This document shows, in pieces, positions 3,740-59,064 of a DNA stretch of 64,000 bases (its first letter is position 1; the number at the start of each line of letters is the position of its first letter). The notes beneath the pieces are model-generated. The model saw nothing but the letters and a program-made list of their open reading frames with translations, had not been told where the DNA came from and ran no database searches. The DNA is from a virus: positions 70,438 to 134,437 of the IMG/VR virus record IMGVR_UViG_3300028283_000002. The stretch is one strand, 5' to 3'. The translations under genes were made by a program, and so were the position numbers.

Positions 3740-4804
3740 ATGATAAAAAAATATAACACATATATAAACGAAGGAGTTAAGGATAAACCTAAATTCTTTA
3801 ATATCAAGGACGTTTTTGATAAATTTCCAGGTAGTATTTCGATTGCTGAGAAGGAACTTCAAAATCTTGTAATCGGGGAATTATGTGTTTGGTATGTAGT
3901 TGGTTCCAGTTCGTTGAAAAAACAAGTGGTAAGTGAAGTAGAAATTAGAAAGTTTCATCAAGTATATTTTAACGGTTTTCACGTCAACGCTGATTATAGT
4001 ATAGAAATAGAACAAAAAAGCAAAGAAGACAATTCTTTGAGAACTACAATAGATGATGAAATACAATCATATATAGATAAACTTAAAAATGGTCGACCAA
4101 AGAAACATGAGATAGTTGGTTTTCCAACTGGTGAGGTATTGTATGTTACAAGAGACGAGATGCAAAAATTATTAGATAATGGGCTTGTGAGATATGAGAA
4201 GTGGATGAAATGGAGAGATACAGATTATAAAGACATATATTTTTTTAGAGATCAAGTCTATCATCAAATTAGAAAAGTTTTAGACGATACATATAAAAAA
4301 CCAATAAAATCTAATGTTGAAGAGAAAGACGAATACGATATTGGTGACGTTGTTGTTTGTACTGGTTCTTCTGGTAGATTAGTACTTGAAGATAGAATAG
4401 GTAAAATTGTTGATAAAGTCAAAAAACCAAAAGAACAAGATTATTCTTATCTGGTATCATTTTTAATGAAATTTAGTTTCTATCTTTTAGATGGAAATAA
4501 ATGGTGGATGAAAGAAAATAATATAAAAGGATTATATACTGGTGATATTCAAACTCAAATACAACTAGCCAAACTACAAGATAAAAGACAACCACCACCC
4601 GAAGTTGAAAAATTTATGAGCGATTTTCTAGAAGAACACGAAATAGATGACGATTATCATTTAAAACAACTATTTAAATCTGGCGCAAATAAAGTAGTTA
4701 TAGATCAAGGGAATGATAATATAAAAACAATAGAACCAAAACCTATGTCTATACAATCAGATGATTACGAAGATGAAGAAGAAATGGATCAACAAAATGA
4801 TTAA
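3740..4804 (+). CDS. Hypothetical internal protein (CTS-like N-terminus, KOW/SH3-like domain)
   Basis: MIKKYNTYINE; YDIGDVVVC...IGKIV. Confidence 0.6.
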   Translation: MIKKYNTYINEGVKDKPKFFNIKDVFDKFPGSISIAEKELQNLVIGELCVWYVVGSSSLKKQVVSEVEIRKFHQVYFNGFHVNADYSIEIEQKSKEDNSLRTTIDDEIQSYIDKLKNGRPKKHEIVGFPTGEVLYVTRDEMQKLLDNGLVRYEKWMKWRDTDYKDIYFFRDQVYHQIRKVLDDTYKKPIKSNVEEKDEYDIGDVVVCTGSSGRLVLEDRIGKIVDKVKKPKEQDYSYLVSFLMKFSFYLLDGNKWWMKENNIKGLYTGDIQTQIQLAKLQDKRQPPPEVEKFMSDFLEEHEIDDDYHLKQLFKSGANKVVIDQGNDNIKTIEPKPMSIQSDDYEDEEEMDQQND

Positions 4805-6572
4805 GAAATTTAAAACATATAACGAAGAGTTTTCTTTCGATAAAATCGAGAGCGAGGAGATTGTTATTGATATTAATGACTATGCCGAAGAATACGATAA
4901 TATCTTTAAAGATAAATTCAGATGCGTTAAAGCTGTTGGACCTATTCATCAAGAAGGTGAAATCTTTAATGTGAAAGATTTGTTTAAAGGTACATTTGGA
5001 ATGTGGATAACAAGTAAATCAAGATACGATGTGACTGAAAAATTTAAAATTATAAAAGGTTTCGATTGTGATATAGAATTCCTACAATTGAAAAAAGGTA
5101 ATTATATTATGATTTGGCCGGGTAAACAACAAAGAATAAATGACGCTGATCCAAATTACGAACCTTATCCAGGAGCACCAAAGAGAAAAGCGAGAATGAA
5201 AGGATCAAAAGAAAATTCTTTAAAAAGATTATCTAGAATATTTAGTGAACATAATAAAATTTTTATTCCAGCCAATAGAGTTGTAATGTACAATTTAGTG
5301 GAATATTTAAGAGACGCCCAAGAGAAACTTATAGGCGGTTATTTTTGGGAAACATCATCAGGCACTGTTGTAAGAGGAACTACCGATAAAAGATATACAG
5401 GTAAACAAGAAGAAATAGTTATCACAAGACCTAGATACATATACACAAACGGTGATCATTTAATATTAAAAAGCCAAAAAGTAGGAGGAACAGTTTGGGA
5501 CAGAGAAAAAGAAACTTATTTAGATATAAATAAACCCATCTACGGTAAAATGGTACATTGGATTGATCCAGAACTAGATCCATACGGTGAGGAGGAATGG
5601 GACGATGAAGTTAGAGAAATCACTGAAATCCGAAGTTTTGATAAATTTATACCAACAGGTAAATCTATTTCCAGTAATGAGATAGAAGATATGATAGAAA
5701 AAAGAGACGTAAGAGTTCTTAATGAAGATTATATAGGACGGGTAATGGTTTCAGATTTACCAAATTATTACATACATATAACTAATTGGATAATTAATAA
5801 TGATGGAAGACAGCGGTATAAAGGATTAAGATTTTATTACGATAATTACTACGATCCAAATGGAAAACATTATCAATTTACAACTGAAAGGGTTTACTAT
5901 TTCAAATCTAACATTACAATTACCACTTATAAAGAAATTGATCCTATGATAATTATAGATGAAAGAGATCCATATGGAGAAGAAGATTGGCGTGAATACG
6001 TGATAAGTGAACAATTTAATGAAGAATACACTCCTCCTAAACCAAAACTTGTTTTAGATAGAACACTTAATTTTAGTGATTTTCTTAGATTTGATCTTCT
6101 CGGACTTAAAAAGTTAAATCTTGTTAGAGATTTTATGTTAGAACAAATTGTTATTATTAAACAGGGGCATAATAACGCTAGAACAAAAGGTAGGGTATAT
6201 CACATTAAACCAATTAAAATAGATGGCGATCAATATTACGAGATTAAAATGACTACAAAACAAGGGGATAAATCAATTATTATTGGTGACGCTGATAAAT
6301 TTAAAGTTAAACCTCCTAAACAAATTAAATATAAAATAGATCCATGCGGTGAAGAAGATTGGGAATTATTGGGGGATGACGTTCCGGATGTTAAATCAAA
6401 AGTCATTAAGGGTAAAGGAAAAATCAAGAATAATGGGTATTTCAGCCACACCTTTCCGGTCAAAAAAGATTTTTATAAAATTTTAAAAGATATTCGACAT
6501 CAAGCGATTCAAAAAGAAGATTTTGAAAAGTTTTTAAAAGAAAAACGAAAAAAGGAAAACGAAGAAGATTAG
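4797..6572 (+). CDS. Modular protein with CTS-like N-terminus and three DP(Y/C)GEExW tags (start revised to 4797)
   Basis: MIKKFKTYNEE; tags at 5577, 5967 and 6339. Confidence 0.7.
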   Translation: MIKKFKTYNEEFSFDKIESEEIVIDINDYAEEYDNIFKDKFRCVKAVGPIHQEGEIFNVKDLFKGTFGMWITSKSRYDVTEKFKIIKGFDCDIEFLQLKKGNYIMIWPGKQQRINDADPNYEPYPGAPKRKARMKGSKENSLKRLSRIFSEHNKIFIPANRVVMYNLVEYLRDAQEKLIGGYFWETSSGTVVRGTTDKRYTGKQEEIVITRPRYIYTNGDHLILKSQKVGGTVWDREKETYLDINKPIYGKMVHWIDPELDPYGEEEWDDEVREITEIRSFDKFIPTGKSISSNEIEDMIEKRDVRVLNEDYIGRVMVSDLPNYYIHITNWIINNDGRQRYKGLRFYYDNYYDPNGKHYQFTTERVYYFKSNITITTYKEIDPMIIIDERDPYGEEDWREYVISEQFNEEYTPPKPKLVLDRTLNFSDFLRFDLLGLKKLNLVRDFMLEQIVIIKQGHNNARTKGRVYHIKPIKIDGDQYYEIKMTTKQGDKSIIIGDADKFKVKPPKQIKYKIDPCGEEDWELLGDDVPDVKSKVIKGKGKIKNNGYFSHTFPVKKDFYKILKDIRHQAIQKEDFEKFLKEKRKKENEED

Positions 6573-10763: not shown

Positions 10764-11087
10764 TTAAACCCATGAATTTCTATCAGTCCAACGATTTTTA
10801 TATGGGTCTGATTTAGTTTCATATTTTTTACTTGGTAAATCATCGTCCCAATTTTCTTCACCGTAAGGATCAAGCTCTTTCATTCTGTCCTTTTTAATGT
10901 TCATTTTCTTGAGTTCTTTTCTAGCTCTATATGTAACAGAGTAGTCTGATAATTCTCTTAATTTTTCAAGTATATAAACTCTATCTTTATCTGGAAGATT
11001 ATGCCAATCATCTTTGGATAATCTCATGGATTTAATTTTCCTTAATTCGTATAAATATTCTCGGTCGGTCATACGTTGTCCTCCCAT
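10764..11087 (-). CDS. DPYGEExW-tagged hypothetical protein
   Basis: ELDPYGEENW at 10848-10871; probable start MTDREY at about 11072. Confidence 0.7.
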   Translation of the reverse strand: MGGQRMTDREYLYELRKIKSMRLSKDDWHNLPDKDRVYILEKLRELSDYSVTYRARKELKKMNIKKDRMKELDPYGEENWDDDLPSKKYETKSDPYKNRWTDRNSWV

Positions 11088-11584
11088 AATTCTTCCCCGT
11101 AAGGGTCTGCTTCACTAAAAATTTGTTTACCTTTATTAATGGGTTGTATTGATTCATTGAATGCTCCCCACTGTGGAAAATGATCATCCAACAGAGATAC
11201 TCTTAATAATTCCATATTATCATCTAAATGATGATAAACATTATTTTCACTCGTTAGAATTGATAGACCATCGTTTCTCATTATATCTATCAGTGGTCTA
11301 TTATCGTGTAATAAACACGTATCATCAAAATGAAAAAATGGATCACCGTCTATTCTTGAAAATCCTAAAAATTTTATCCAATTTTTTAAATTATCATCTG
11401 GGAAATCGTGTTTATTAATTATTGCGCCAGCATCAGTTTCTTTACCTATATAAATCCAACAAGGACCAGATACACCGCCTACTTTTTCACGTATTCCAAA
11501 ATATCTCATTTGTTCTCTTAAACACGCGTTTAAAGCAGCTTCTAATTGAACAGATCTTGTTCTTATCTTAAATACTAATGGCAT
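11069..11584 (-). CDS. DPYGEExW-tagged hypothetical protein
   Basis: C-terminal FSEADPYGEELWEDNV. Confidence 0.75.
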   Translation of the reverse strand: MPLVFKIRTRSVQLEAALNACLREQMRYFGIREKVGGVSGPCWIYIGKETDAGAIINKHDFPDDNLKNWIKFLGFSRIDGDPFFHFDDTCLLHDNRPLIDIMRNDGLSILTSENNVYHHLDDNMELLRVSLLDDHFPQWGAFNESIQPINKGKQIFSEADPYGEELWEDNV

Positions 11585-11587
11585 AAT

Positions 11588-12157
11588 TTATTCCTCCCAA
11601 TTTTCTTCACCGTAAGGATCAACAGCACAAAACTTTTGTCCCTTTGGTTCTTTTTTTCTTGATATTTCTTTTTCTAAAAATATTAAATCTTCATTAACTC
11701 TATTTCTCAAACCAATTAAAGCCACTCTATAATCCCTATGCGTCTTGTATCTACCTTTAGTGATGAAAAAATAAGAATTTAATTCTCCTCTTGATTTATC
11801 CACATCCGCTTCTAATGTCCATATTCTTGTCCTACAATCTGTGAATCTATTAGCTGTGTAATTATCCATATTTGGTGCCCATTGACCATTATAATGTCTA
11901 GCCACATGATCCAATCTATGAACCATAGGAGTGATATTATTATGTATGGTTCTATATGTGGATTTAATATCTTCTATTTCAGCCACTATACCAACACCAA
12001 GAATCCCTTTTGTGAGATATATAGGGAATACCTTTTCTTTTATTAAATTCCACAATTCAGTGCATGTTTTTACAATTATGGCAATAATAACACGCCAACC
12101 TTCTAATGTGAATAAAAGTTTGAATATATTACTCAACGTATGGAATACCGCTTTCAT
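11588..12157 (-). CDS. DPYGEExW-tagged hypothetical protein
   Basis: C-terminal PKGQKFCAVDPYGEENWEE. Confidence 0.75.
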   Translation of the reverse strand: MKAVFHTLSNIFKLLFTLEGWRVIIAIIVKTCTELWNLIKEKVFPIYLTKGILGVGIVAEIEDIKSTYRTIHNNITPMVHRLDHVARHYNGQWAPNMDNYTANRFTDCRTRIWTLEADVDKSRGELNSYFFITKGRYKTHRDYRVALIGLRNRVNEDLIFLEKEISRKKEPKGQKFCAVDPYGEENWEE

Positions 12158-12458
12158 TTAATGAATCTAAATAATTGTTATGACCTAATTGAATTTTATC
12201 GTAAATTTCGTCTCTGAATTTCACCTTAACTTCCCTATCTGGGTAGTACTCTGCAATTTCTCTTAATTTTGAACCACTTGGTATAGCTATTAAATCATCA
12301 TCCATAACGTAAGAACCTTCACCATCAAACCAGGGAAAATCCATAAGTAATTCGTGTTGAGCTAATAACATTGGATAATATATGTTATTTTCGAACATTC
12401 CTGGTCCCTCTAGACAAACCCACCATCTGTTTTGTATTTTGGATATTGTGTATCTCAT
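12129..12458 (-). CDS. Hypothetical protein
   Basis: ORF in a tightly packed minus-strand operon. Confidence 0.65.
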   Translation of the reverse strand: MRYTISKIQNRWWVCLEGPGMFENNIYYPMLLAQHELLMDFPWFDGEGSYVMDDDLIAIPSGSKLREIAEYYPDREVKVKFRDEIYDKIQLGHNNYLDSLNESGIPYVE

Positions 12459-12461
12459 AAT

Positions 12462-12881
12462 CTACTCCTTCCAATTTTCTTCACCGTAAGGATCTAATTC
12501 ACTAAAAACTTGTCCTTGCGGATCGTTGTTTTCATACCTTATTTGAGCAGCAACCATCTCAATTCTTAAAGTGTTTATAACATCTTTATGCCTATCATAC
12601 ATAACATCTATAACAATCCCATGATTATCAATTAGTTCTGGGGGATTATTGGTTGCGTCACATATTATTTTATAGTTATAAAGGAAGTGATTAACTTGTA
12701 GTTCTTTAAATATGGGATCTAATCTTGTTATAATTTCAGTGCGTGTGTCTGGCGTATTGAAACGCATCCACATGTTTTCTAACGCTTCTTCAATTCTTTT
12801 TCTAATTAAGATGAAGGCTCTGCGTACATTTAAATCATCGAGTGTTATCGAATCTTCATTTATTATCCAAGGACTATTCAT
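12462..12881 (-). CDS. Stand-alone tail-sheath C-terminal-domain homologue with DPYGEExW tag
   Basis: LNVRR...RFNTPDTRTEI...KEL...LYNYKIICDATNN aligns by eye with RFNTPEIRAEI...KEL...LYDFKNVCDKTNN of the sheath at 55207. Confidence 0.8.
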   Translation of the reverse strand: MNSPWIINEDSITLDDLNVRRAFILIRKRIEEALENMWMRFNTPDTRTEIITRLDPIFKELQVNHFLYNYKIICDATNNPPELIDNHGIVIDVMYDRHKDVINTLRIEMVAAQIRYENNDPQGQVFSELDPYGEENWKE

Positions 12882-13269
12882 TGTCCCACCTTTCTTCCCC
12901 GTAGGGATCTAATTCACTAAATACCTGTTGATAACTACCTTTAGGATCATGTCCATGTAATCCTCTAAAATCGCCTTCACAATCAAACCAACCAACATCG
13001 GGACGATAACTCCATAATTCACTAGCCATGGATTTTCCTTGTAATTTAGTTTTAACTCCTTTGTGTTCAATCCACATGGCGTTGCCTTGTGAATCTGACT
13101 GTAAAACTTTATGGTTATCTGTTGCATTAATAGTATTACTTAGTTGAAAACTACTTGGATTTGGTACTCCGTAAAAACTATTAGTCACTATTTTTTTCCA
13201 TAGTTTATTTGTATTCATTGGTTTTCCTCCTCTCCATTTAGGATTGTTGCTCATAAATCTTCTAGACAT
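12874..13269 (-). CDS. DPYGEExW-tagged hypothetical protein containing a PolB-like KxxxNSxYG segment
   Basis: KKIVTNSFYG; C-terminal QVFSELDPYGEERW. Confidence 0.7.
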   Translation of the reverse strand: MSRRFMSNNPKWRGGKPMNTNKLWKKIVTNSFYGVPNPSSFQLSNTINATDNHKVLQSDSQGNAMWIEHKGVKTKLQGKSMASELWSYRPDVGWFDCEGDFRGLHGHDPKGSYQQVFSELDPYGEERWDNE

Positions 13270-13667
13270 TACCAGTTCTCCTCTCCGTAAGGGTCTAATT
13301 CATTAAATCTTTGTTCACCTTTTGGTTGTTGGGTTTGTTCATTTTGTTTCCACAACATTCCTGTACTACCAAAACCTGTATTATTTTTAAAAAAGTCTGG
13401 AAGTTTTTCCATTGCTTCTTTCATATATTTTTGACCTGCTCCTGTAACTCCTCTTGCTTGGTCGTAATAATTAGTTGACCAATGATCTATTAATCCTAAT
13501 TTATTCCATTTCTCAACGGCGTCTCTACGTATTTTCCTAAGAGTTTCTTTATCAATAGAATTTTCATATTCTTTTACAAGTTCTAGTTCTCTTTTAGCAA
13601 TACTATCAAAGCTCTCCATTTTCATGAGATCTTCGTTTAAACTCCTATATTCTTCTTTAGTCATCAT
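13269..13667 (-). CDS. DPYGEExW-tagged hypothetical protein (start revised to ATG 13667)
   Basis: Ends FNELDPYGEENW*; TAATG coupling to the upstream micro-ORF. Confidence 0.7.
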   Translation of the reverse strand: MMTKEEYRSLNEDLMKMESFDSIAKRELELVKEYENSIDKETLRKIRRDAVEKWNKLGLIDHWSTNYYDQARGVTGAGQKYMKEAMEKLPDFFKNNTGFGSTGMLWKQNEQTQQPKGEQRFNELDPYGEENW

Positions 13668-13820
13668 TAGTTTCTCCAATCTTCCTCACCGTAAGGATCT
13701 AAATCACTAACTACTCTATTAATTTCAGAGTTTCTCATACCTCTTCCTATTGACTGTTTTTCATGTAAACTACCGAAGCTTCCTATTTTCCAAATCTTTT
13801 ATTTTATCTTCTATTTTCAT
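13667..13820 (-). CDS. Small DPYGEExW-tagged ORF missed by the ORF track (about 50 aa with one frameshift, or 23 aa from ATG 13738)
   Basis: Frame reads ...GMRNSEINRVVSDLDPYGEEDWRN*; upstream ATG 13820 is out of frame by one base. Confidence 0.65.
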
Positions 13821-13837
13821 AACTTTTATTTTATTTT

Positions 13838-14101
13838 TTATTCATCTGTTAAAGCCGCTTTAATGGATTCTGTAACATCAGGTATGACTTGTACTTTCTC
13901 AAGTATTTTAACCTCAATATCAATAATTCTATTACCCGGAATATATCTTTTATCGTATCCAACATCTACCAAAAAACCTTGAGTACAAATTCTATAAAGA
14001 TGTTCTTTAAGAGAACTATCTTCACAATCAATATGAAGATGATGTAATCTTGGTTCTGTGTATCTTTGATCTATATGTATTTCTAATTCGTATGTGTTCA
14101 T
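13838..14101 (-). CDS. Hypothetical protein
   Basis: Operonic ORF. Confidence 0.6.
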   Translation of the reverse strand: MNTYELEIHIDQRYTEPRLHHLHIDCEDSSLKEHLYRICTQGFLVDVGYDKRYIPGNRIIDIEVKILEKVQVIPDVTESIKAALTDE

Positions 14102-14105
14102 AACT

Positions 14106-14315
14106 CTAATTATTTTTTTCTTCTTCTACTTTTTCTAATTCTCCAAGTAAAACAACTTTTAAGTGATTTGTTGAAAAGTGACGTGCTTGTACGATAAAAC
14201 TTTTATCGTCATCAAGTAAAACAGTATCATTAACGGCTGGAACAATATATGTGTAATATTCCTGAAGTATCTCACCGTCGTAGTCCATAATTATAATTTT
14301 GTAATCTTTGATCAT
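14106..14315 (-). CDS. Hypothetical protein
   Basis: Operonic ORF. Confidence 0.55.
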   Translation of the reverse strand: MIKDYKIIIMDYDGEILQEYYTYIVPAVNDTVLLDDDKSFIVQARHFSTNHLKVVLLGELEKVEEEKNN

Positions 14316-14317
14316 TG

Positions 14318-14560
14318 TTAAGGCTTCGTTTTCTTTTTTATAGTCTTTTTTTCGTCAGTTGTTTCGGTTTTTTCAACCTTTTCTCTCTTTTTTCTTGGTT
14401 TTAAATATGGAGTATATTCAGTTATACCTTTTTTTTCTAAACAGTTAAAGCAATGCAATACCTGATAAGAGTTGTTCTTTGTAACCCAATACACTTCTTT
14501 ATCTGTAAAGTCACCAAGACAGTTCATACAGATATTACTATTAGAAATTTTCTTCGCCAT
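14318..14560 (-). CDS. Small zinc-finger protein
   Basis: CMNC...CFNC plus basic tail. Confidence 0.6.
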   Translation of the reverse strand: MAKKISNSNICMNCLGDFTDKEVYWVTKNNSYQVLHCFNCLEKKGITEYTPYLKPRKKREKVEKTETTDEKKTIKKKTKP

Positions 14561-14831
14561 CGTCTTTTATATTATCCAAGTTATATCTTTGTTTCTTTTT
14601 ATCCCAATCTCTACCTAAAAATTTCATAATAGGCCACCAATTCTTGAAATTATCACTCTTGAGGATTAATACAGTCTCCACAATTATTCCAAAAATATTT
14701 AAAACAGGAGTGAACCAAACATGTGGTGAAACATTCTTATCTATTCCCCTTATATAAGCATGATAGTTCAACCATCTACATAGAAATACACTCTCGATGT
14801 ATATACCTAATATCCAATATAATACCGTCAT
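14541..14831 (-). CDS. Small membrane protein with degenerate tag (DDGEENF)
   Basis: Two hydrophobic segments; C-terminal KDDGEENF. Confidence 0.55.
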   Translation of the reverse strand: MTVLYWILGIYIESVFLCRWLNYHAYIRGIDKNVSPHVWFTPVLNIFGIIVETVLILKSDNFKNWWPIMKFLGRDWDKKKQRYNLDNIKDDGEENF

Positions 14832-15232
14832 AATCCTAAAATTTTATCAATTAAATTCATATCTTCTGTGTCTGTGTCGTCAACGATGAATATAGTTTCA
14901 TGGATTTCAGCAACGAGATCTAACATGTCTCCTCTATTCTTCATCCATAACATATAATCACCAGAATCAAACTTCACACTTTCGTCTAAAGCCTTGTTAT
15001 ATAAGGAAATTTGAACTACGTCACCAGTAGTTACACCCATTCCAAACTGATTATAATAATAAAGAATTTCCCATGTTTCATCTTCGTAAACAAATGATAA
15101 ATTAGGGTGATCTGAAGAAATGACGTTTACTTTATCTACGTTCTTCAACGCTGTATTTCTTACGATTTCGAATACTTTCGTTCTTTGTTCTAATGATAGT
15201 TTCATGATTTTTAAATTAAGGATATAATACAA
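14828..15232 (-). CDS. Hypothetical protein
   Basis: Operonic ORF. Confidence 0.6.
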   Translation of the reverse strand: MYYILNLKIMKLSLEQRTKVFEIVRNTALKNVDKVNVISSDHPNLSFVYEDETWEILYYYNQFGMGVTTGDVVQISLYNKALDESVKFDSGDYMLWMKNRGDMLDLVAEIHETIFIVDDTDTEDMNLIDKILGL

Positions 15233-15488
15233 TACATCTTTTACTTGGGTCGTTCTTCATCAATTCCCACTCGTCGTCTTCAAAATCGTTTTCCCACGCT
15301 TCTCTTTTCGTGTCGTAAACTTCATATCCACCTCTTCTACCACCTTCTTCTGTGAAGACACAATCTGGATCAAATCCGCGAGCCGATTCATAACCATTAC
15401 CTTCTGAGTCCCTTTGCAACATTATTTTGCAATCGTCCAATTCAATAGACATTGAATTGACTTGTTCTCTTAGTTCTTTAAGTTTCAT
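15216..15488 (-). CDS. Hypothetical phage protein
   Basis: MKLKELREQ...LQRDSEGNGY pattern typical of small phage proteins. Confidence 0.6.
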   Translation of the reverse strand: MKLKELREQVNSMSIELDDCKIMLQRDSEGNGYESARGFDPDCVFTEEGGRRGGYEVYDTKREAWENDFEDDEWELMKNDPSKRCIVLYP

Positions 15489-15489
15489 A

Positions 15490-15738
15490 TTAGTTTTGTT
15501 TTTTAATCATTTCAGTCTGAACGTAAGTAGCTTTATCGAATTCCACTTTTCTGATGGAATCAATTTTAGGTCCAGCACAATATACACAAGAGCTATAAAC
15601 GTCAGGTGAACTGAAAGACGTTGTGATAGAATAATTATTGTTTACGTTATCGTAAGCAATTTTCTGTTCAATTTTTACACTTTGATTACCGCAAGCCATT
15701 AAAAATAACATTGAGGCAAATACTATTAACTTTTTCAT
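15490..15738 (-). CDS. Putative lipoprotein
   Basis: MKKLIVFASMLFLMA-C lipobox signal. Confidence 0.65.
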   Translation of the reverse strand: MKKLIVFASMLFLMACGNQSVKIEQKIAYDNVNNNYSITTSFSSPDVYSSCVYCAGPKIDSIRKVEFDKATYVQTEMIKKQN

Positions 15739-15756
15739 TTTTCTTTTTTTTAATTT

Positions 15757-15942
15757 TTAGAAAGGTCCGTAATAACAATCATCTTTTACACGTGGTTTAC
15801 CAGATAACATATTAGATATTAAGAATTTTAAATCTAATATAAAAGCGACTATCAACCACAAAATAATCCCCGGTATTATTAATGTCGGTAAAGTTATTAA
15901 TAATAATAACACGTACCCTATAATTTGAAAAAACTTTTTCAT
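15757..15942 (-). CDS. Small membrane protein
   Basis: Long hydrophobic stretch. Confidence 0.5.
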   Translation of the reverse strand: MKKFFQIIGYVLLLLITLPTLIIPGIILWLIVAFILDLKFLISNMLSGKPRVKDDCYYGPF

Positions 15943-16092
15943 TTTTTATATCCTTTTTTATTATCAAACGATTTACCAAACAATCTAAGTGTGAATTCAA
16001 AAAATAAAGCAATAAGAGCTAGTCCTATTACTAATACATCTGGAAACATAACTATAACAAATATAATAACAATCGCGATTACAAGTCCCATA

Positions 16093-16431
16093 TCAATTTT
16101 CATTTTTAGGTTTATTGAAAATATCGTAAGGAAAATATTTCCTTTCTATTATTAACAAATAAAATGCCATAAACATTACAAGAAAGAAAGACATCATTAT
16201 ATACGATCTACTACCGACAGCTAGGGTCATCCACGCTGATATAATCAAAGCATCTAACCCCACAATAATTCTAAGCAGATATTTAATAAAAATTTTTAAT
16301 ATCATATTTTTATGTCTTTTAAATATTGTGAGAACATTACTAAATATGGATAAAAAAGATATACAAAATAACATAACCCAATTATAACCATATACATCAT
16401 GAATATGAAGGGCCAGTTGATAGATAACCAT
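16093..16431 (-). CDS. Membrane protein
   Basis: About three hydrophobic helices. Confidence 0.5.
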   Translation of the reverse strand: MVIYQLALHIHDVYGYNWVMLFCISFLSIFSNVLTIFKRHKNMILKIFIKYLLRIIVGLDALIISAWMTLAVGSRSYIMMSFFLVMFMAFYLLIIERKYFPYDIFNKPKNEN

Positions 16432-16547
16432 CTTGGATATTTATCTTCCTTATCATTTGCCGCTATTATACCAGCAATTATAGACATTATAATTAATACA
16501 ACACCTATTAAACCAACGATTAAATGTACCATATTTTTATTTTTTAT

Positions 16548-16883
16548 TTACCAATTAACTATCATTGTCCAAGAAGAACCTTTTCCTGCGTATTTTTGTT
16601 CTATGACTTCAAACCCTTCTGCCCTTAGATCATCTTGAAGATCAAATATATATTCACATAATTTCACATTAACGTCCTCCTGAACTTGTAAATTATACGA
16701 TCCCATTTCAGACATTTTTTTAATTTCTTCGTGAATTAATTTAAGTCCGACTTTTTTCCTTTCCTCTTTAAATTCGTTAAGTCTTATATCTGACTCGGCT
16801 CTAAGTCTCTTATCAGACTCTTCTGCCAATTTTTTCATTTCTTCTGCTAATCCCATATTATTTAGTGTTTTTATTCGTTCCAA
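16548..16883 (-). CDS. Hypothetical protein
   Basis: Operonic ORF ending L..EGFEV...W. Confidence 0.6.
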   Translation of the reverse strand: MERIKTLNNMGLAEEMKKLAEESDKRLRAESDIRLNEFKEERKKVGLKLIHEEIKKMSEMGSYNLQVQEDVNVKLCEYIFDLQDDLRAEGFEVIEQKYAGKGSSWTMIVNW

Positions 16884-17113
16884 TTTTCTTCTCCGTATGG
16901 ATCTATATCATTAAAAATTCTATTTGTTTTACGTTCTTCCATTATAGGTACATTTTCGTAATATTTCGCAAGATGTTGATAATCATACGTGTACCGGTTA
17001 AACTTCAATTTCTCTCTTGATATCTCTTCGGCTAAGATAGCTTCTAGTTGTGCAACAACGTCAAAACCATGATAAGCTTTAAGATCTTCTATATTTTCAG
17101 CATTCCATTTCAC
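16871..17113 (-). CDS. Major-capsid-protein fragment homologue with DPYGEExW tag
   Basis: WNAENIEDLKAYHGFDVVAQLEAILAEEISRE resembles T4 gp23 ELAQDLRAVHGMDADAELSGILATEI (recalled, not searched); ends DIDPYGEENWNE. Confidence 0.7.
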   Translation of the reverse strand: MKWNAENIEDLKAYHGFDVVAQLEAILAEEISREKLKFNRYTYDYQHLAKYYENVPIMEERKTNRIFNDIDPYGEENWNE

Positions 17114-17409
17114 GAAGTCCAGTCCTCCTCACCGTAAGGATCATCATATTTATGTTTCTTCATGAGAATTTTATTTCTTCTTTTCTTCCATATTTTAACA
17201 AAAAATTTCCAAATGCTTTCTAAACCAAATTCCCAAAAAGCTGCGAAAATTAATACTAACGATGCTAAAATGTTTAATGGTGTGAAAAATATAGCAAATT
17301 CAAATCCCCCTTTATCGCTATCCTCCCACATCGCGAAATAAAAAAATATAAGCAATACAAACCAAGCGATTAAAAAACCTATAAGCCACCACATATCTAG
17401 TTCTCCCAA
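17110..17409 (-). CDS. Two-TM membrane protein with DPYGEExW tag
   Basis: Two hydrophobic helices, basic stretch, then DDPYGEEDWTS. Confidence 0.7.
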   Translation of the reverse strand: MGELDMWWLIGFLIAWFVLLIFFYFAMWEDSDKGGFEFAIFFTPLNILASLVLIFAAFWEFGLESIWKFFVKIWKKRRNKILMKKHKYDDPYGEEDWTS

Positions 17410-18851
17410 TTTTCTTCCCCATAAGGATCTAAAGACTTACGCCTGTGATACTCTTCGGGATTAGTTTCAAGTAATTTTAATTTATCTATCAATATACTAT
17501 TTTCTTTCATTGCTTTATCTGAAAGTTTCAGATAATGTATAACTTCTTTTTGTACTTCGTTCTTTTCGTTTATAACTCTTCTTAAAGCTTCTTTAGTCTT
17601 CTTTAAATCTTCAACAAGATATTTTTTATTTTCTTCTATTTCTCTGTTTCTTCTATCAAAATAATCTTTATGAAAATTTGCTTCTTTTATCCATTCATCA
17701 GGCTCACCAGGTAAAGGTGAAGACTCATCTTTCCACCATGTAGTATCTGGAATGTTCCACTTTTTAGTTTTTTGCGATGATTCTAACTTATCCCTGTAAT
17801 CAGCGTATTTTTTCTTATTAAGCGTCCACTCTTCTTCTGTTAAAGTTGGTGGGGCGTAAGCACGTGCGTTCTCCCAAGACCTTCCTTCTTCGTATAATTT
17901 ACCACTACCAAACCATCTACCTTCTAACTCACTATCTCTTTGAAAATCTTCGTACCTTTTCTTTTTTTCTTTCCATTCTTGATCACTCAACACTTTTATT
18001 TCACCATCATCACCTTTTTCGATGGGAAGAATAGGGTTAAGTGGAGGATTAAAACCTCTTTTTTTCATTACTTCGTTCCACTCATCTTCTGTATAGCGTT
18101 TATATTTTTCTTCTATTATATTATTATATTTTTCCCTACTGTCACGCAGATGTGGATTTTGATCCAACTTCCATAAAGGAATTTCTTGTTGTTCTGTATC
18201 TACATTTAATTTAATACCTTTTGGATATTTATGTTGTGATACCTGCCAGGAATAAGGTTTATAAGGTTCGTCGTAATCCTTAATTTCATTTCTTCTATCT
18301 GGATTATTTCTATTATATTCTGTTTGTTTTACAAATTCTTTATATCTCTCCCTATTTTCTGTTTCAGTTAAACCATGATCAGGTTTATAAATACCACTTC
18401 TGAAATCTTCTTTTGGTTTTTGTGTCGCCGTTATGAACGGTCTTCCCTGACTGACTATGTTATCAGCCAATTTTCTCACTTCGTCGTGGGTTAATTCTTT
18501 ACCGTCAACATAATACTTATTATCTTTTCTTGTAACTGCTGGATTTTGTAAAGAAAAATGAGATTTACTCGAATATGTTTTCTCACCTTCCGAATTCCAC
18601 ACTTCTGTTATAGGAACAAAAGGTTCTAATCTAGAAACTTCCTTTTCATATTCTTTTGCTACATCTTTTATGGACACAAAAGGTTTTTTTTCTTGGTTTT
18701 CCTTTTCCTTCAATTCCTCGTAATGGAATACATTATTTCGTGCATCAGGTTCGGAAGAAGAAACATCTTTATTTAAATGTAAAGTTTCTTGCCACCATCT
18801 TACACCAGACTCATTTGGATCGTATTCACCATCTTTATTTCTTGCCATCAC
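17397..18851 (-). CDS. Charged Trp-rich protein with coiled coil and DPYGEExW tag
   Basis: 484 aa; repeated (T/S)xxEWxxxKK units; RWFGSGKL; ends SLDPYGEENWEN. Confidence 0.75.
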   Translation of the reverse strand: MMARNKDGEYDPNESGVRWWQETLHLNKDVSSSEPDARNNVFHYEELKEKENQEKKPFVSIKDVAKEYEKEVSRLEPFVPITEVWNSEGEKTYSSKSHFSLQNPAVTRKDNKYYVDGKELTHDEVRKLADNIVSQGRPFITATQKPKEDFRSGIYKPDHGLTETENRERYKEFVKQTEYNRNNPDRRNEIKDYDEPYKPYSWQVSQHKYPKGIKLNVDTEQQEIPLWKLDQNPHLRDSREKYNNIIEEKYKRYTEDEWNEVMKKRGFNPPLNPILPIEKGDDGEIKVLSDQEWKEKKKRYEDFQRDSELEGRWFGSGKLYEEGRSWENARAYAPPTLTEEEWTLNKKKYADYRDKLESSQKTKKWNIPDTTWWKDESSPLPGEPDEWIKEANFHKDYFDRRNREIEENKKYLVEDLKKTKEALRRVINEKNEVQKEVIHYLKLSDKAMKENSILIDKLKLLETNPEEYHRRKSLDPYGEENWEN

Positions 18852-19356
18852 TCATATCTTTAATCTTTTTAACAATCTCTTTTTGTATAGTTTTAGTCAA
18901 TTCATCTACCATCATCTGCTCAAATTCTTTCATATGCTCTTCATACGTTTTCTTTTTTGTAGACTCAGGTGAATCTGGAAAAGTCTTAGGTAATTCTATA
19001 TCAACGTCGTAATAATCACCTAACATTTTTAATTTATTCCAATCATTTTTGTGAATAGAATTTCTGTACCATTTAACGTAAAAAACACATAAAGAATTAA
19101 CAATTAATCCATTCTGTAACAGATAATCGTGACTATCAGAATCTTCCCCACAATCTGTTTCGTGCCATCCTCGCCACCCGTCATCGTTGAATTTTTCTGG
19201 TTTGTCTATATCTGAATAATTTGCTGATCCTCTTTTAGCAAAGCTAAAAGCAGTCTCTATTAGAAGAGTCAATTCATCGTTGATAGGATCTTTTAACTTT
19301 TCTTCTTTCTTAGGTTCCATATATAGAAGAAACCTAGATGTATCATTCCTGTGCAT
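18835..19356 (-). CDS. Hypothetical protein
   Basis: 173-aa operonic ORF. Confidence 0.65.
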   Translation of the reverse strand: MHRNDTSRFLLYMEPKKEEKLKDPINDELTLLIETAFSFAKRGSANYSDIDKPEKFNDDGWRGWHETDCGEDSDSHDYLLQNGLIVNSLCVFYVKWYRNSIHKNDWNKLKMLGDYYDVDIELPKTFPDSPESTKKKTYEEHMKEFEQMMVDELTKTIQKEIVKKIKDMSDGKK

Positions 19357-19525
19357 TTTTATCTTTTTTAAACCATCCTTTAAATTCTTTCCACGATATA
19401 GAATCTGGATTATCTTTCATATCAAACATTCCAAAACGAATAGCCAATACAAAAGCTGCACCCATCATCACAAACACCATACAAAATATTAAAAAACAAT
19501 ATAATAAAATCGCTAATCCCATCAT
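19343..19525 (-). CDS. Small membrane protein
   Basis: Single TM helix. Confidence 0.5.
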   Translation of the reverse strand: MMGLAILLYCFLIFCMVFVMMGAAFVLAIRFGMFDMKDNPDSISWKEFKGWFKKDKNAQE

Positions 19526-19795
19526 AACTTTATAGTTAATAAAAATTTACTACTTTCTTTTAATTCATCTAATTTAGTAAATCCGTCTTTTCTAGCCATA
19601 TCAATCAAAACATTTACAGCTACATCTTCCTATTAATTTTATTAAAACTCTTTCTAATCTTTTAGCTGATTCAACTGTTATATTTTCGTATAATTTAAAT
19701 CTTATTGGTTCTTCTTTATCATTTAGAATTTCAGCAACTACTCTATCAACGTCTTTAATGTTTTTTTTATAATTCACTTTTATAAACGTAATATT

Positions 19796-20101
19796 TCATT
19801 TAGTTTTTAATTCTCTTTTTCTGTTAATAATGATTTCCTCAGCCCTGTAAGCGTCCTGAATATTCATTTTCTTAACGACTATATCTTCACCACCGAAACT
19901 TGATATAATCAGTGTAGTCCCCCAGAGAGAAGTATCTACTTTCACTGCAGCTACATTAAGTATATCCATACTCATACTATCTTTATTCAAAAGACTTTTG
20001 TTCCTTTTACTAAATCTAATAATGTCGTTATCTATCTCTAACACGTAAGGTGTAAAGATAGGACCAAGACGAGTAATATCAGATGTGAATTTATTGTACA
20101 T
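19796..20101 (-). CDS. Bacterial PH-domain-like protein
   Basis: Beta-rich I.F.KRN..L...S.....VAAV.VD..LWG..L.I followed by a C-terminal helix. Confidence 0.55.
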   Translation of the reverse strand: MYNKFTSDITRLGPIFTPYVLEIDNDIIRFSKRNKSLLNKDSMSMDILNVAAVKVDTSLWGTTLIISSFGGEDIVVKKMNIQDAYRAEEIIINRKRELKTK

Positions 20102-20430
20102 TAGGTAAAAATTATAAGATTGTTTTTTGTAGAAATAGCAGATAATTTATTCAAAAGATTTCTGAATTTTACGTGATAATTTCCAGATTGTGTCCAATCA
20201 TCAATAAAAAAATCAATCCTATCAAAGATAACCACAGTGTTTTTAGCCCTATCTAAGACTTCAAACAATTTATCGTTAGATTTATCTTTGAAAGAAATGA
20301 GAGTAGTTTTATCAGACAACGGGTACATAACAGCCATTGTTTCAATCACTATGACGTCTTCGTCTTTAAAATGTTCGAGGAACTTATTTATTTTTTCGTA
20401 ATACATAATTAGTGATTTTATTTTTAACAT
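20101..20430 (-). CDS. Hypothetical protein, possible RecA/DnaB-fold fragment
   Basis: VVIFDRID...L..L..IS.KNNLIIFT; no Walker A motif. Confidence 0.5.
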   Translation of the reverse strand: MLKIKSLIMYYEKINKFLEHFKDEDVIVIETMAVMYPLSDKTTLISFKDKSNDKLFEVLDRAKNTVVIFDRIDFFIDDWTQSGNYHVKFRNLLNKLSAISTKNNLIIFT

Positions 20431-55206: not shown

Positions 55207-58200
55207 ATGCCAATAAGTAACAAAGATTTAGGAAAGTACAAACGTCCAGGTATTTTCATCGAAGAGATAGATCTATCGATGATTGAACGTCCAATTCAGG
55301 AAGTACTAATCAACTTAGTGCCTGGCTTCTCTAAGAAGGGTCCTTTCAATAAGCCTGTTAGGGTTAATAGCCCACAGGAATTTGAGGACATTTTTGGACC
55401 AGTGGACAAAAACCTTGAAAACAAAGGTTCATACTTCCACAGATTTGTAGAGGATATGTTGACTGTGGGTCCCGTTTGGGCACTCAATTTATTGAAGACT
55501 GATCCTACTAGAGATCAATTGGAATGGGAATCTATCTCAGTTTCAGCTCAGTACGATAACGGTCCTAAGAACTCTTCGCCTTACGAAAGATTTTTCAATA
55601 GACAAGATTTCTGGGAAAGAGATGTAGAATCCTTTATGGATATCGTTGATCTAGAATTTATTGATCACCCTACAACTCAACCAAATCCAGCACATGATTT
55701 GTTCAGTATAACAAACATGGGGGATAAGAAAATTACATTGTTCACGTTCAAATCTTCAATTACTGGATTTGACGTATCAGCCGAAAGTTGGTACGGTGGA
55801 GCTGATAAAGTTCCTTTATTCATGAACGCAAAAGATTACATCTCAGATTATATGATTAGTGTGTTATCAGTTGTTGGTGATTATACAGATTACGCAACTT
55901 TGAGTGTTGACCCATATTGGGGTAAATATTTCAACGCTAATGGTTTAATCAAAGGACAAGTTCAAAACTTTGTTAGTGATAGATTAACAACAGTTAACGC
56001 TTATTATGATGTGTGTTTAATTCCAAATTTTAGAGATACATCTGGAAGAGATATGTATATCAAGAATGTTATTAACGTAGCGACCGAACAAACTGGTTTA
56101 TTCTGTTATTACAACGAAGAATATCTGTTAAATTCAGATTTCTACAAAGGTAACATTGATACAATCGGTGCAACTTTAGTTCTCACAGAAGACGTTATTA
56201 ATAATGTTATTCCAAAGACTTCAATTGATTTTATGTCTTATAAAACCAATTTAAGTGAAAGTGTTGGTTACGCTGAAAGAGGATTAGATTACGTTGGAAA
56301 TCCATTCGGAAACTACAGCGAAGATATGATAACATCATGGGTTAGTGGCAGAACAGGTCAATATACAAACTGGTACACTAACATAGCTCCAACAGCAGTA
56401 ACTAATATGTATTCTACTGTTATAACAGGCGTTGTTTCATCAGCCATTACTTTAACAAGTATAACTGGTGTTGAAGTTGACGATACTATTTATTTCAGTA
56501 AATCATTCGGTATCTTAGAAAAAGATTTACCATATTATGTTTTAACAATTGATGGTGCTAATATTACAATATCTAAAACCAAAGGTGGCCCAATTTTAAC
56601 AGGACTTTCTTCTGGAACAAATGTTTTCGCTTATAGTTTAAAACAAAAATTCTACGACGCTATTGGAAGTTTATCTTATAATATCAACACTGGATATACA
56701 TTATCTGATAGTGTATTATTCTTGGAACCATTTGTTGTAAACAATAGTGCACAAACATATAGTAGATATGATATTGTATATTTAAGTACAGATTATACAA
56801 CTATTCATACAGTAAAAGGAAATCAAGTAACTGGTACATCACCAAGTAAACCAAACTTCCTTTTAAGTAACGCTAATACAATTATCCTAGGATATATGAA
56901 AATTCAATATGATTTAGTTTCCAGTGTAACACCAACTTTCACAAAAACTTGGTACCCTGTTACAGTAGATGAAACTAAATATTTAGTTTTAGTAGATGGT
57001 ACAGACGTTTCAGCAGTATCTGGTGTAACAGTCGCTGGTATCAAATATTTAGATCTATATTTCTTAGGAACATCTGGATCAACAGACTATACCAATTATC
57101 TCAAATTAAGAAAATCAAAAATTTTCACTGAGATTTATACCAATTTATTGACTGGTAGATCTGTTATAATTAATAAATTAGATGGAAGTAAATATTCTGT
57201 AACAGCTACAGTATTTGAAGCTACAACTACATCAGATGCTCACGTCATCATATACTTCGATAGTTTAACAGCTACAAATCCATTTAATTATTACGTAAGT
57301 GGTAGTTTCTTAATCTATTACATAGACTATGAATTAGATTTCTATTTAAGATCAAATAGTCTTTCGAGTATAATTACAACAACTGGAGTAGTAAATGGAT
57401 TAGCCGCAGATACAGGTATAGTTGCTAAATACTCAACATTATATCAAGATTATTACAATGGTATAATAAATAACGGTGATTACATTTATCAAAACAACGA
57501 TAGTGGAACAACAGTAAAAATTTATTTGAAAATGTTCTTAAATTCAGATAAGAACTTAACAATTAAATTTGCTAGTGCACCAGAAGGTGATCCAGATACT
57601 ACATTAACTAACGTTAGTGTAAATTATCGAGACGCTGATGGTAACATAGCTTTAATAATTTATTCAAATAAATCAAGTTACAAACAATCACTTGAAATTG
57701 AAAACACAAGTTATATCACAGACTTTAATAACGTAAACTATGTTTATGTTGATAAGACTAGATATGCAGAAATAACAAAAGGCTGGTACTTAGAAGCATA
57801 TTACGACACTTCGTATTATGATTCTCCAGGTGAAGGTTATATCTTAGGAGCAGTTCCAAGAAAACTTGTTCGTATAACAAAGACAGCTATTGATACTGTA
57901 GATCCAATGTTAAAAATCTTATACGCTGACGGCCCAATTAGAATTTTAAGTAACCCAACAGGTTCTACTTACGATTATTACACCTCAGCCTATATGTCGA
58001 TTGATAACTATGTTGGTGAATACAATGGTTTAACATTAAAACCGTTCACAGTACATCCAGATTCAATGCCAAATAACACAGACGCTAGATTAGATAGCAT
58101 AATGAGTGTGTTAGACAAATCAACAAACTTAGCAAAAGGTTTGGCTAATAAGAACAGAATCACATGGAGATACTTAGTAGACTCCTTCGGATTAGGTCTT

Positions 58201-59064
58201 ACCGCCTTATCAAAACAAGAATTCGTTGATCTCTGCGGTATGAAACTCAACTGTCTTGGTTTCATCAATATGCCAAGTGCAAGACAATTTAAAACATCAA
58301 TCAACCCAAGTTTTATCAATGATGATAGAACAATAAATACTACATATATCAAAGAAGGTGGAAATCCAGATCTTAATCCAAGCTTCGAATATAGTTTTGG
58401 TAACGGTGTTGGTATGAGTTGTGTAGGTTATTTCTTCCCTTATGTTAAGGACGTAAATGATACTACCAAGTTTATACCACCTGCAGCTAAAATCTGTAAA
58501 ACCTACATGAAGAAATTCACTGGTGGTTTAGGAAACGCTTATCCATGGCAAATCATAGCAGGTCCACAGTTCTCATTAATAACAGACATTTCAACAACTG
58601 AAATGAGATTTACTAATGAAGATCTTGAAAACTTCTACGCAATGGGAGCCAATCCAATTGTTTACTCACTCAACAGAGGGTACAATATCAACTCAGAAAG
58701 CTCAGCACAGGTTTATCCACTTAGCTCACTAAGTTATATTCACTCAAGAGAAGTTCTCATAGAACTTGAAAATAGACTCTACGATATGTTACTTAACTAT
58801 CATTGGAGATTTAACACTCCTGAAATTAGAGCTGAAATCAAGTTCAGAGCAGACCAAATCTGTAAAGAACTTCTAGACTCAAATGCACTCTATGACTTCA
58901 AGAACGTTTGTGATAAAACAAACAATACTGACTATATCATAGACCTACAAATGGGTGTGTTAGATACCTACATAGAAATTATCAAAGGAATGGGTATCAT
59001 TGTGAATAACATTACAATTCTCAAAAAGGGAACCATCGAATCTGGTGGTTTCTTACCTCAATAA
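55207..59064 (+). CDS. Contractile tail sheath protein (T4 gp18-like, with large insertion)
   Basis: RPGIFIEEID.S, GFS.KGP...P, F..IFG, N-terminal and C-terminal sheath domains, FNT...R..I, CD.TNN. Confidence 0.93.
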   Translation: MPISNKDLGKYKRPGIFIEEIDLSMIERPIQEVLINLVPGFSKKGPFNKPVRVNSPQEFEDIFGPVDKNLENKGSYFHRFVEDMLTVGPVWALNLLKTDPTRDQLEWESISVSAQYDNGPKNSSPYERFFNRQDFWERDVESFMDIVDLEFIDHPTTQPNPAHDLFSITNMGDKKITLFTFKSSITGFDVSAESWYGGADKVPLFMNAKDYISDYMISVLSVVGDYTDYATLSVDPYWGKYFNANGLIKGQVQNFVSDRLTTVNAYYDVCLIPNFRDTSGRDMYIKNVINVATEQTGLFCYYNEEYLLNSDFYKGNIDTIGATLVLTEDVINNVIPKTSIDFMSYKTNLSESVGYAERGLDYVGNPFGNYSEDMITSWVSGRTGQYTNWYTNIAPTAVTNMYSTVITGVVSSAITLTSITGVEVDDTIYFSKSFGILEKDLPYYVLTIDGANITISKTKGGPILTGLSSGTNVFAYSLKQKFYDAIGSLSYNINTGYTLSDSVLFLEPFVVNNSAQTYSRYDIVYLSTDYTTIHTVKGNQVTGTSPSKPNFLLSNANTIILGYMKIQYDLVSSVTPTFTKTWYPVTVDETKYLVLVDGTDVSAVSGVTVAGIKYLDLYFLGTSGSTDYTNYLKLRKSKIFTEIYTNLLTGRSVIINKLDGSKYSVTATVFEATTTSDAHVIIYFDSLTATNPFNYYVSGSFLIYYIDYELDFYLRSNSLSSIITTTGVVNGLAADTGIVAKYSTLYQDYYNGIINNGDYIYQNNDSGTTVKIYLKMFLNSDKNLTIKFASAPEGDPDTTLTNVSVNYRDADGNIALIIYSNKSSYKQSLEIENTSYITDFNNVNYVYVDKTRYAEITKGWYLEAYYDTSYYDSPGEGYILGAVPRKLVRITKTAIDTVDPMLKILYADGPIRILSNPTGSTYDYYTSAYMSIDNYVGEYNGLTLKPFTVHPDSMPNNTDARLDSIMSVLDKSTNLAKGLANKNRITWRYLVDSFGLGLTALSKQEFVDLCGMKLNCLGFINMPSARQFKTSINPSFINDDRTINTTYIKEGGNPDLNPSFEYSFGNGVGMSCVGYFFPYVKDVNDTTKFIPPAAKICKTYMKKFTGGLGNAYPWQIIAGPQFSLITDISTTEMRFTNEDLENFYAMGANPIVYSLNRGYNINSESSAQVYPLSSLSYIHSREVLIELENRLYDMLLNYHWRFNTPEIRAEIKFRADQICKELLDSNALYDFKNVCDKTNNTDYIIDLQMGVLDTYIEIIKGMGIIVNNITILKKGTIESGGFLPQ

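Follow-up and report, generated by a model that had tools for sequence, protein, structure and literature searches.

A stand-alone, tagged homologue of tail-sheath domain IV encoded outside the tail module of a phage

Introduction

The closest described relative of the protein reported here is domain IV of the T4-type tail sheath (gp18, residues ~548-645; PDB 3J2M, 9MKB). T4 also encodes internal proteins (IPI*, IPII, IPIII, and Alt) in which a short, invariant capsid targeting sequence (CTS), located at the N-terminus and removed by the prohead protease, is carried by diverse, fast-evolving cargo. IPI* is a counter-defence protein that is delivered with the DNA. Small proteins that act by occupying an interface include the eukaryotic microProteins, which are single-domain paralogues acting as dominant negatives, and DSAD1 of phage SPbeta, which blocks the tail-tube sensor DSR2.

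Small handshake-domain proteins are also found among the sheath initiators. T4 gp25, TssE, and gp115 of phage 812 accept the termini of the sheath outside its lattice (PMC13433997). The handshake domain of the phage 812 initiator is two-stranded and accepts both the N- and C-termini of the sheath, and handshake domains are present in the baseplates of most contractile systems (PMC13433997).

The gene described here encodes a 139-residue protein, referred to below as the mini-sheath. It matches domain IV of the T4-type sheath in fold, motifs, and homology. Unlike that domain, it stands alone, lacks the PF04984 body and the N-terminal arm, carries a disordered linker and a DPYGEExW tag where the C-terminal arm would be expected, and evolves much faster. 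It is a small handshake-domain protein like the gp25-type initiators but differs from them in having no PF04965 match, in lying apart from any baseplate gene set, in being sheath-derived, and in being undetected in the sister huge phages LR756502 and LR745206. The tag may be likened to the T4 CTS, each appearing as an invariant address peptide on fast-evolving cargo. However, DPYGEExW sits at the C-terminus or internally, differs in sequence from the CTS, and is not known to be cleaved. The likeness to microProteins and DSAD1 is one of concept (a small protein occupies an interface) and is an analogy only, as neither has a sequence or structure relation to the mini-sheath.

Results

The Viral Record and the Resident Sheath

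The window is the whole stretch of DNA that was analysed, 64,000 nucleotides in length, and is part of a 152.7-kb viral record. Its sequence is contained in DNA and RNA libraries from lake water. The full-length sheath encoded in the window, referred to as the resident sheath, has the following positions:

55207..59064, plus strand: resident tail sheath, 1285 aa, 95% identical to the LR756501/LR756503 sheath.
~58726-58965, plus strand: C-terminal domain of the resident sheath (residues 1174-1253) that is homologous to the mini-sheath by BLASTP.

LR756501 is a 735-kb genome labeled "uncultured phage"; 735 kb is the size of the largest phage genome reported by Al-Shayeb et al. 2020 (PMC7162821). 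More distant homologues of the resident sheath are present in LR756504, LR756502, LR745206, LR756500, and the Lak phages, with further homologues in Flavobacterium and Tenacibaculum jumbo phages. The sheaths of MaF61 and PTm1 are among the homologous ones. The N-terminus of the resident sheath retains the PG..E.D arm motif. A 302-aa protein of the histone-deacetylase family (PF00850, E=1.7e-15) is encoded near the sheath region at 51941-52849 on the plus strand.

The Mini-Sheath Gene and Its Homology

The mini-sheath gene can be divided into the following parts:

12462..12881, minus strand: mini-sheath CDS, 139 aa (P0001), from the ORF list; the exact protein is found in public collections.
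12858..12881, minus strand: disordered N-terminus, residues 1-8 (pLDDT <50).
12546..12842, minus strand: PF17482 "handshake" core, residues 14-112, from profile and BLASTP matches, AF2, and Foldseek.
12465..12527, minus strand: disordered linker and extended tag, residues 119-139 (NDPQGQVFSELDPYGEENWKE), with pLDDT ~58-60 and no secondary structure.
12471-12494, minus strand: core tag DPYGEENW, residues 130-137, ending 2 residues from the C-terminus.

The initial annotation had placed a sheath C-terminal domain in this reading frame, and both the frame (minus strand, 139 aa, with the strings quoted for it) and the homology are borne out. The mini-sheath matches Pfam PF17482 (Phage_sheath_1C) with an E-value of 6.6e-7 and 29.8 bits, above the cut-off of 26.9. 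It matches PHROG 23 ("tail sheath") with an E-value of 7e-15, and residues 548-645 of the 659 residues of T4 gp18 with an E-value of 5e-7. In BLASTP, residues 13-92 align with residues 1174-1253 of the resident sheath at 40% identity over 80 aa (E=3e-14). Genome searches give the mini-sheath 28.9-31.9 bits against PF17482, while the resident sheath reaches 15.5-17.6 and falls below the cut-off. No family other than sheath matches the mini-sheath in Pfam or PHROG, and no homology to a known anti-defence family was found.

The AF2 model of the mini-sheath, built on 46 sequences, has a pLDDT of 80.5, with ~87-97 in the core. The core is composed of two helices, a strand, a CDATNNPP loop, and a beta-hairpin. 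The predicted elements are helices at residues 9-37, 44-63, and 81-85, and strands at 69-73, 89-96, and 102-109. Residues 110-139, tag included, are disordered in the model. In Foldseek, the sheaths of T4 (gp18) and KP1 come out first, followed by T4 gp25 (5iv5 and 5iw9, TM ~0.45) and then by the Afp, PVC, and pyocin sheaths.

The motifs FNTP..R and Y..CD.TNN.P..ID, which are the most conserved in sheaths, are kept by the mini-sheath. The invariant sheath residues retained are N42, R47, C74, N78, N79, and D85, corresponding to FN..R and CD.TNN...ID. The N-terminus of the mini-sheath contains a P-W motif that is common to several family members in the alignments. The stand-alone mini-sheath is confirmed as a true homologue of tail-sheath domain IV.

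Most of the remainder of the sheath is missing. The Pfam scan gives no PF04984 body match, and the sequence begins just before domain IV. The mini-sheath also lacks the N-terminal arm motif S-P-G-V...E.D, which the resident sheath and 27 other full-length sheaths carry. Without an N-terminal arm and outer domains, and apparently without a C-terminal arm, the mini-sheath cannot extend the sheath lattice. It can be described as an acceptor without donors, predicted to dock arms but unable to extend a lattice.

No match to PF04965 (GPW_gp25) was obtained for the mini-sheath at E<=1. A PF04965 search of the 152.7-kb record, LR756501, and LR756500 gave no match either, which is a weak negative because these phages are very divergent.

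The NVRR string of the mini-sheath had been singled out as a signature that the resident sheath lacks. The absence is real, as the resident sheaths of the huge phages read SYIH(S/V)REVL at this position. NVRR belongs to the canonical sheath string (INVRRLF in T4, consensus DRINVRRLF), into which the mini-sheath fits, but it is lost in most other tagged members. It is therefore a leftover of the ancestral motif and does not mark the family. The higher PF17482 score of the mini-sheath relative to the resident sheath is consistent with replacement of NVRR in the residents.

The Linker and the DPYGEExW Tag

The mini-sheath ends in a disordered segment with an exact copy of D-P-Y-G-E-E-x-W, a motif found 19 times in the window. 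The tag pattern has 103 copies in LR756501 and no copies in LR756500, LR756504, LR756502, and LR745206. Third codon positions vary among the tag copies, which together with the lineage-limited occurrence indicates that the tag acts at the protein level and is specific to the 735-kb lineage. Q124, F126, and DPYGEE.W do not vary across 10 members of the mini-sheath family. Relative to LR756501, the final 27 codons, which encode the linker and tag, have five synonymous and zero non-synonymous changes.

The linker-tag module of ~19 residues that follows the hairpin recurs in unrelated neighbours, as in ..PKGQKFCAVDPYGEENWEE and ..QQVFSELDPYGEERWDNE. In BLAST and phmmer, some alignments extend to mini-sheath residues ~124-133 against sheath C-termini, yet ..KGxQ[IV]F[SC]E[LI]DPYGEE.W also occurs in unrelated tagged neighbours and the untagged form in LR756500 ends earlier. 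This untagged homologue, in a genome that has no tag, shows that the tag was added later to a pre-existing mini-sheath.

Public assemblies break or are mis-joined at the tag DNA (10868-10871, 11090-11119, 12469-12501, and 17404). These breaks and mis-joins show up as contig ends and as short-sided "joints" that link the tags of different genes. The tag-coding stretch, at least 24 nucleotides long, behaves as a dispersed repeat. This repeat could be a recombination substrate that moves tags among genes. A 603-aa protein (4761-6572, plus strand) contains two internal tags, at residues 273 and 403, in a polyprotein-like arrangement.

The Gene Block and the Promoter-like Motif

The mini-sheath gene is located in a block of small genes, of which the following are closest to it:

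10764..20430, minus strand: block of ~25 small, tightly packed genes that holds the mini-sheath gene, ~9.7 kb, without a T[TA]AATATATA-type motif.
13269..13679, minus strand: tagged gene of the same block, 136 aa.
12874..13269, minus strand: upstream tagged gene, 131 aa, whose end overlaps the mini-sheath ATG; no family match.
12129..12458, minus strand: untagged gene directly downstream, 109 aa, 96% to LR756501 and 78% to L026; no Pfam or PHROG family.
11588..12157, minus strand: tagged gene of the same block, 189 aa.

The downstream 109-aa gene begins 3 nucleotides past the mini-sheath stop. The overlap at the start and the 3-nucleotide gap suggest translational coupling. The 109-aa gene also directly follows the mini-sheath gene in L026, a 10-kb relative, but not in L027. 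Its product is a possible partner of the mini-sheath.

The region 10764-14560 of the block is syntenic in L026. Between the two sequences, the tagged proteins are 35-47% identical (mini-sheath 41%) and the untagged neighbours are 67-78% identical. This gap indicates that the cargo changes quickly around a tag that does not vary, and that within the block fast evolution goes with the tag.

A promoter-like motif, T[TA]AATATATA / TTTATATATA / TTAATATAT[AG], has 62 copies in the 152.7-kb record and 24 sites in the window (928-62828). It is similar in style to TATAAATA, the late promoter of T4. Of the 62 copies, 48 are located 10-120 nucleotides (mostly 15-40) upstream of a gene start on the same strand. 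The motif precedes large structural-looking genes of 903, 741, 687, 612, 519, and 509 aa, and a looser variant, TATAATATATATAG, is found 75 nucleotides upstream of the sheath gene. In the block at 10764-20430, no copies are seen where ~4 are expected (P ~0.02). This lends indirect support to a different transcription class for the mini-sheath block, with the timing class of the motif assumed from the genes that it precedes.

A sigma-70 and terminator scan of the block was uninformative, as promoter-like sites were fewer than in shuffles. A TAnnTTTG-like box is present right before the first gene of the block and is too near the ATG to interpret. The initial annotation had described the gene as 43 kb away from the sheath in an apparent early operon. 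The distance stands: the mini-sheath gene is 42-46 kb from the sheath gene and outside the tail module. On the putative early timing, the absence of the motif points, and only indirectly, to a non-late promoter class.

Contigs from the RNA libraries of two lake-water studies span the mini-sheath gene, which is a weak sign of its transcription. The uncovered parts of these contigs, and the gap in depth between the block and the 903-aa gene, cannot be used to rank expression.

A capsid-like tagged ORF in the block (16871-17113, minus strand) scores 21.6 bits against PF07068 (T4 gp23), below the cut-off of 24.4. A 149-aa protein with two tags in L027 (2686-3135), encoded two genes after the L027 mini-sheath, scores 25.5 bits and is above the cut-off. 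Precomputed PF07068 labels are present on four further tagged proteins (P0181, P0190, P0202, and P0206). The block as a whole was considered as a "library of structural fragments". This was rejected because the products of 12874-13269, 13269-13679, and 16871-17113 have no larger paralogue in LR756501 (E<=0.01). Within the 152-kb record, only the mini-sheath has a larger paralogue.

Selection, Family, and Phylogeny

A codon alignment was used to compute dN/dS. Between the mini-sheath gene and its LR756501 orthologue, dN/dS is 0.087 with 90.6% amino acid identity, and dN is ~7 times that of the resident domain. The mini-sheath is under purifying selection and is a functional gene.

A word-indexed homologue search with the single protein returned only the mini-sheath itself. 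HMMER, run exhaustively against 1.8 billion representatives, gave 1327 matches. Apart from the query, six of the nine next-best matches are short stand-alone proteins. Among the top 150 of the 1327 matches are nine tagged stand-alone mini-sheaths, 130-158 aa in length and 35-41% identical, all of which end in ..Q[IV]F[SC][ED][LI]DPYGEE.W. A profile search added P0153-P0156 and others, bringing the tagged mini-sheaths to at least 13.

The distribution of the mini-sheath among the huge phages is patchy. LR756500 (462 kb) encodes an untagged homologue of 101 aa that ends right after the common ..RYEN.. string. With the family profile, LR756502 and LR745206 yield the resident sheath and no mini-sheath. 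LR756504 contains the following, with the second sheath-like ORF being in addition to its 1252-aa sheath:

LR756504 (W02, 636 kb), 366445-366771 and 516836-517057: second sheath-like ORF (open frame of 1221 aa, matching the mini-sheath profile with an E-value of 1.5e-5) and a weak candidate mini-sheath of 163 aa (E=0.012).

A maximum likelihood tree of the domain was constructed with the tag columns dropped and ten tagged mini-sheaths included. The ten tagged mini-sheaths group together (SH-aLRT 92) and adjoin the resident sheaths of the huge phages (82). The LR756500 mini-sheath is the next branch out (83). Mini-sheath branches are 1.0-2.4 in length, compared to a median of 0.24. The comparison with the resident sheath proposed at the outset thus places the tagged mini-sheaths as one group beside the huge-phage resident sheaths, with moderate support. 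This sister position may be influenced by long-branch effects. The tree suggests an old duplication of the sheath within this phage group, followed by fast evolution.

Untagged Relatives

Untagged stand-alone mini-sheaths are encoded by other uncultured phages. They are ~95-145 aa in length and are always located away from tail genes. Five of these (P0176, P0178, P0109, P0158, and P0194) contain the same isolated domain as the tagged gene without DPYGEExW.

A Tad1 homologue (P0209, matching PDB 8kbb_A with an E-value of 1.8e-14) immediately precedes P0176, whose N-terminus is zinc-ribbon-like. Of two precomputed labels on neighbours, "Acb2_Tad1_hairpin" and "Acb5", the Pfam scan recovered neither; the first is borne out by the PDB match, and the second is putative. 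The gene for P0178, which carries a Tat-like signal, comes directly after NAMPT, NMNAT-Nudix, NADAR, and Macro genes, all of which were confirmed. In L042 (1597-5685), NMNAT-Nudix, NADAR, Macro, and NAMPT occur in a row, with the mini-sheath gene at once after them. This row looks like an NAD-salvage and ADP-ribose counter-defence island. P0109 likewise bears a Tat-like signal, and its gene precedes one for a DNA methylase, and P0158 and P0194 are located among replication genes.

The twin-arginine-like signal peptides (MDRR..., MQINRR...) occur on P0109, P0160, and P0178 (L037/L038, L042). They predict that a folded sheath domain is exported to the periplasm.

Anti-defence genes are generally abundant in the early regions of T4-like phages. 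The anti-defence neighbourhood seen here belongs to the distant untagged mini-sheaths only and has limited bearing on the tagged gene.

When the untagged mini-sheaths are included, the tree has very long branches and does not separate one origin from several. The ESM Atlas contains many clusters of short proteins labeled "sheath C-terminal domain (Fragment)", which are indistinguishable from truncated gene calls.

Discussion

The mini-sheath most likely mimics the assembly surface of the sheath. Its gene would give rise to a soluble, non-polymerising copy of domain IV. Domain IV is the inner "handshake" domain of the sheath, and its hairpin takes up the N- and C-terminal donor strands of neighbouring protomers. 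The mini-sheath retains the acceptor core, with a floppy linker and DPYGEExW apparently replacing the C-terminal arm. Such an interface mimic, akin to a "microprotein", would bind any partner that normally docks on that surface. The donor arms of sheath protomers are its likeliest predicted ligand, and the outcome would be a dead-end or mis-nucleated complex in place of a lattice. The tag would route the mini-sheath to the same reader as ~100 other fast-evolving tagged proteins. Trapping of sheath donor arms, in the service of conflict or of timing control, is the specific role that we tentatively favour.

We infer both the binding to sheath arms and a use in conflict (against rival myophages, tailocins, or host sensing) over one in building the phage's own tail. 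The conserved residues may merely hold the fold and are not proof of a retained binding surface. Complex prediction of the mini-sheath with residues 1-70 and 1107-1285 of the resident sheath gave a score of 0.00 and, being without controls, counts neither way. A module that only accepts strands would bind the phage's own arms as well, so that self-poisoning would have to be avoided through timing or compartment. The Tat-like relatives would reside in the periplasm, which contains no sheath arms, and at least those forms would have a different ligand.

The initial annotation had proposed either a decoy for a host sensor or a dominant-negative subunit. Part of this is supported: the gene encodes an isolated, tagged domain that is kept by selection and is no lattice-former, and an accessory or conflict role fits it better than a core structural one. 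The fit follows from the position outside structural modules, the block without the promoter-like motif, the patchy distribution, the fast evolution, and the relatives beside counter-defence genes. The emphasis on NVRR was over-read, and the proposed delivery of a bound partner by the tag is conjectural.

A decoy or shield in counter-defence would have the mini-sheath block a host receptor or cover the phage's own tail surface, with the tag loading it into the virion. Bacterial Avs/STAND receptors recognise most virion proteins through their conserved core folds and interfaces of assembly, and the tail sheath has been named as a possible future receptor target (PMC13581612). The untagged mini-sheaths beside the Tad1 homologue and the NAD-salvage/NADAR/Macro genes agree with such a role, as do the fast evolution of the mini-sheath around an invariant tag and the weak capsid-like tagged fragments nearby and in L027. 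However, no sheath sensor is known, so the receptor is hypothetical, and minimal core fragments sufficed to activate Avs receptors (PMC13581612). A faithful fragment would thus be expected to trigger such a receptor and not to block it. The word "sheath" is also nowhere in the text of the EVADES preprint on 268 anti-defence proteins. This role is possible, although we are inclined to doubt it. An own-tail part or assembly factor (a gp25/TssE-like initiator or adaptor, an end cap, or a chaperone of the 1285-aa sheath) would account for the fold and size shared with T4 gp25 and for the lack of a PF04965 match in the complete 735-kb and 462-kb genomes. The giant sheath is encoded in the same genome, and tagged proteins also occur inside structural-looking modules. 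We nevertheless consider this role unlikely. The searches of LR756502 and LR745206, whose sheaths are of the same type, gave no mini-sheath. The gene is also remote from that of the sheath, among small accessory genes whose block contains no copy of the promoter-like motif. Its non-synonymous rate relative to the resident domain, and the placement of untagged relatives among replication and counter-defence genes instead of tail genes, also speak against it.

The fold could also have been re-used for another ligand, such as the surface of the tail tube in incoming phages or a component of the host envelope. In contractile tails, domain IV is the part of the sheath nearest the tube as well, and relatives bear Tat-like signals (P0109, P0160, and P0178), a zinc-ribbon-like N-terminus (P0176), or the tag. 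The retained motifs are, however, exactly those of working sheaths, and no result points to another ligand, which makes re-use improbable. A decaying, functionless partial duplicate of the sheath gene would be a fragment of a larger gene family with long tree branches, as is seen here. It is largely refuted by the dN/dS value, by the intact frame in at least 13 tagged homologues and one untagged homologue, and by the invariant tag. The gene overlap and 3-nucleotide spacing and the RNA-library contigs that span the gene also stand against decay, leaving it the least probable explanation. Set against these alternatives, mimicry of the sheath assembly surface remains the preferred explanation for the mini-sheath.

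More broadly, the mini-sheath may belong to a class of "virion-protein microproteins" in huge and T4-like phages. Members would mimic interfaces of the sheath, and perhaps of the capsid or portal, against host receptors (including a hypothetical sheath sensor) or rival tails, and would be addressed to the virion by DPYGEExW in the manner of T4 IPI*. We regard so general a class as speculative and rather unlikely.

Conclusions

The architecture of the mini-sheath is new for a known domain: it is stand-alone, tagged, fast-evolving, and located outside structural modules. No paper on stand-alone PF17482 proteins was found in the literature, and the tagged gene is one of a wider class of mini-sheaths that was not found described there. 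Because its fold and natural partners are known, the mini-sheath is a cargo with which the DPYGEExW tag system can more readily be probed, by following where a sheath-binding protein is taken. Few parts of contractile injection machines of any kind are as conserved as the sheath handshake domain. Should a free copy of this domain bind sheath arms or a host receptor, it would offer a natural and portable means of inhibiting or probing the assembly of sheaths. In that case it would also be a lead to the "sheath sensor" predicted by recent work on bacterial pattern-recognition receptors.
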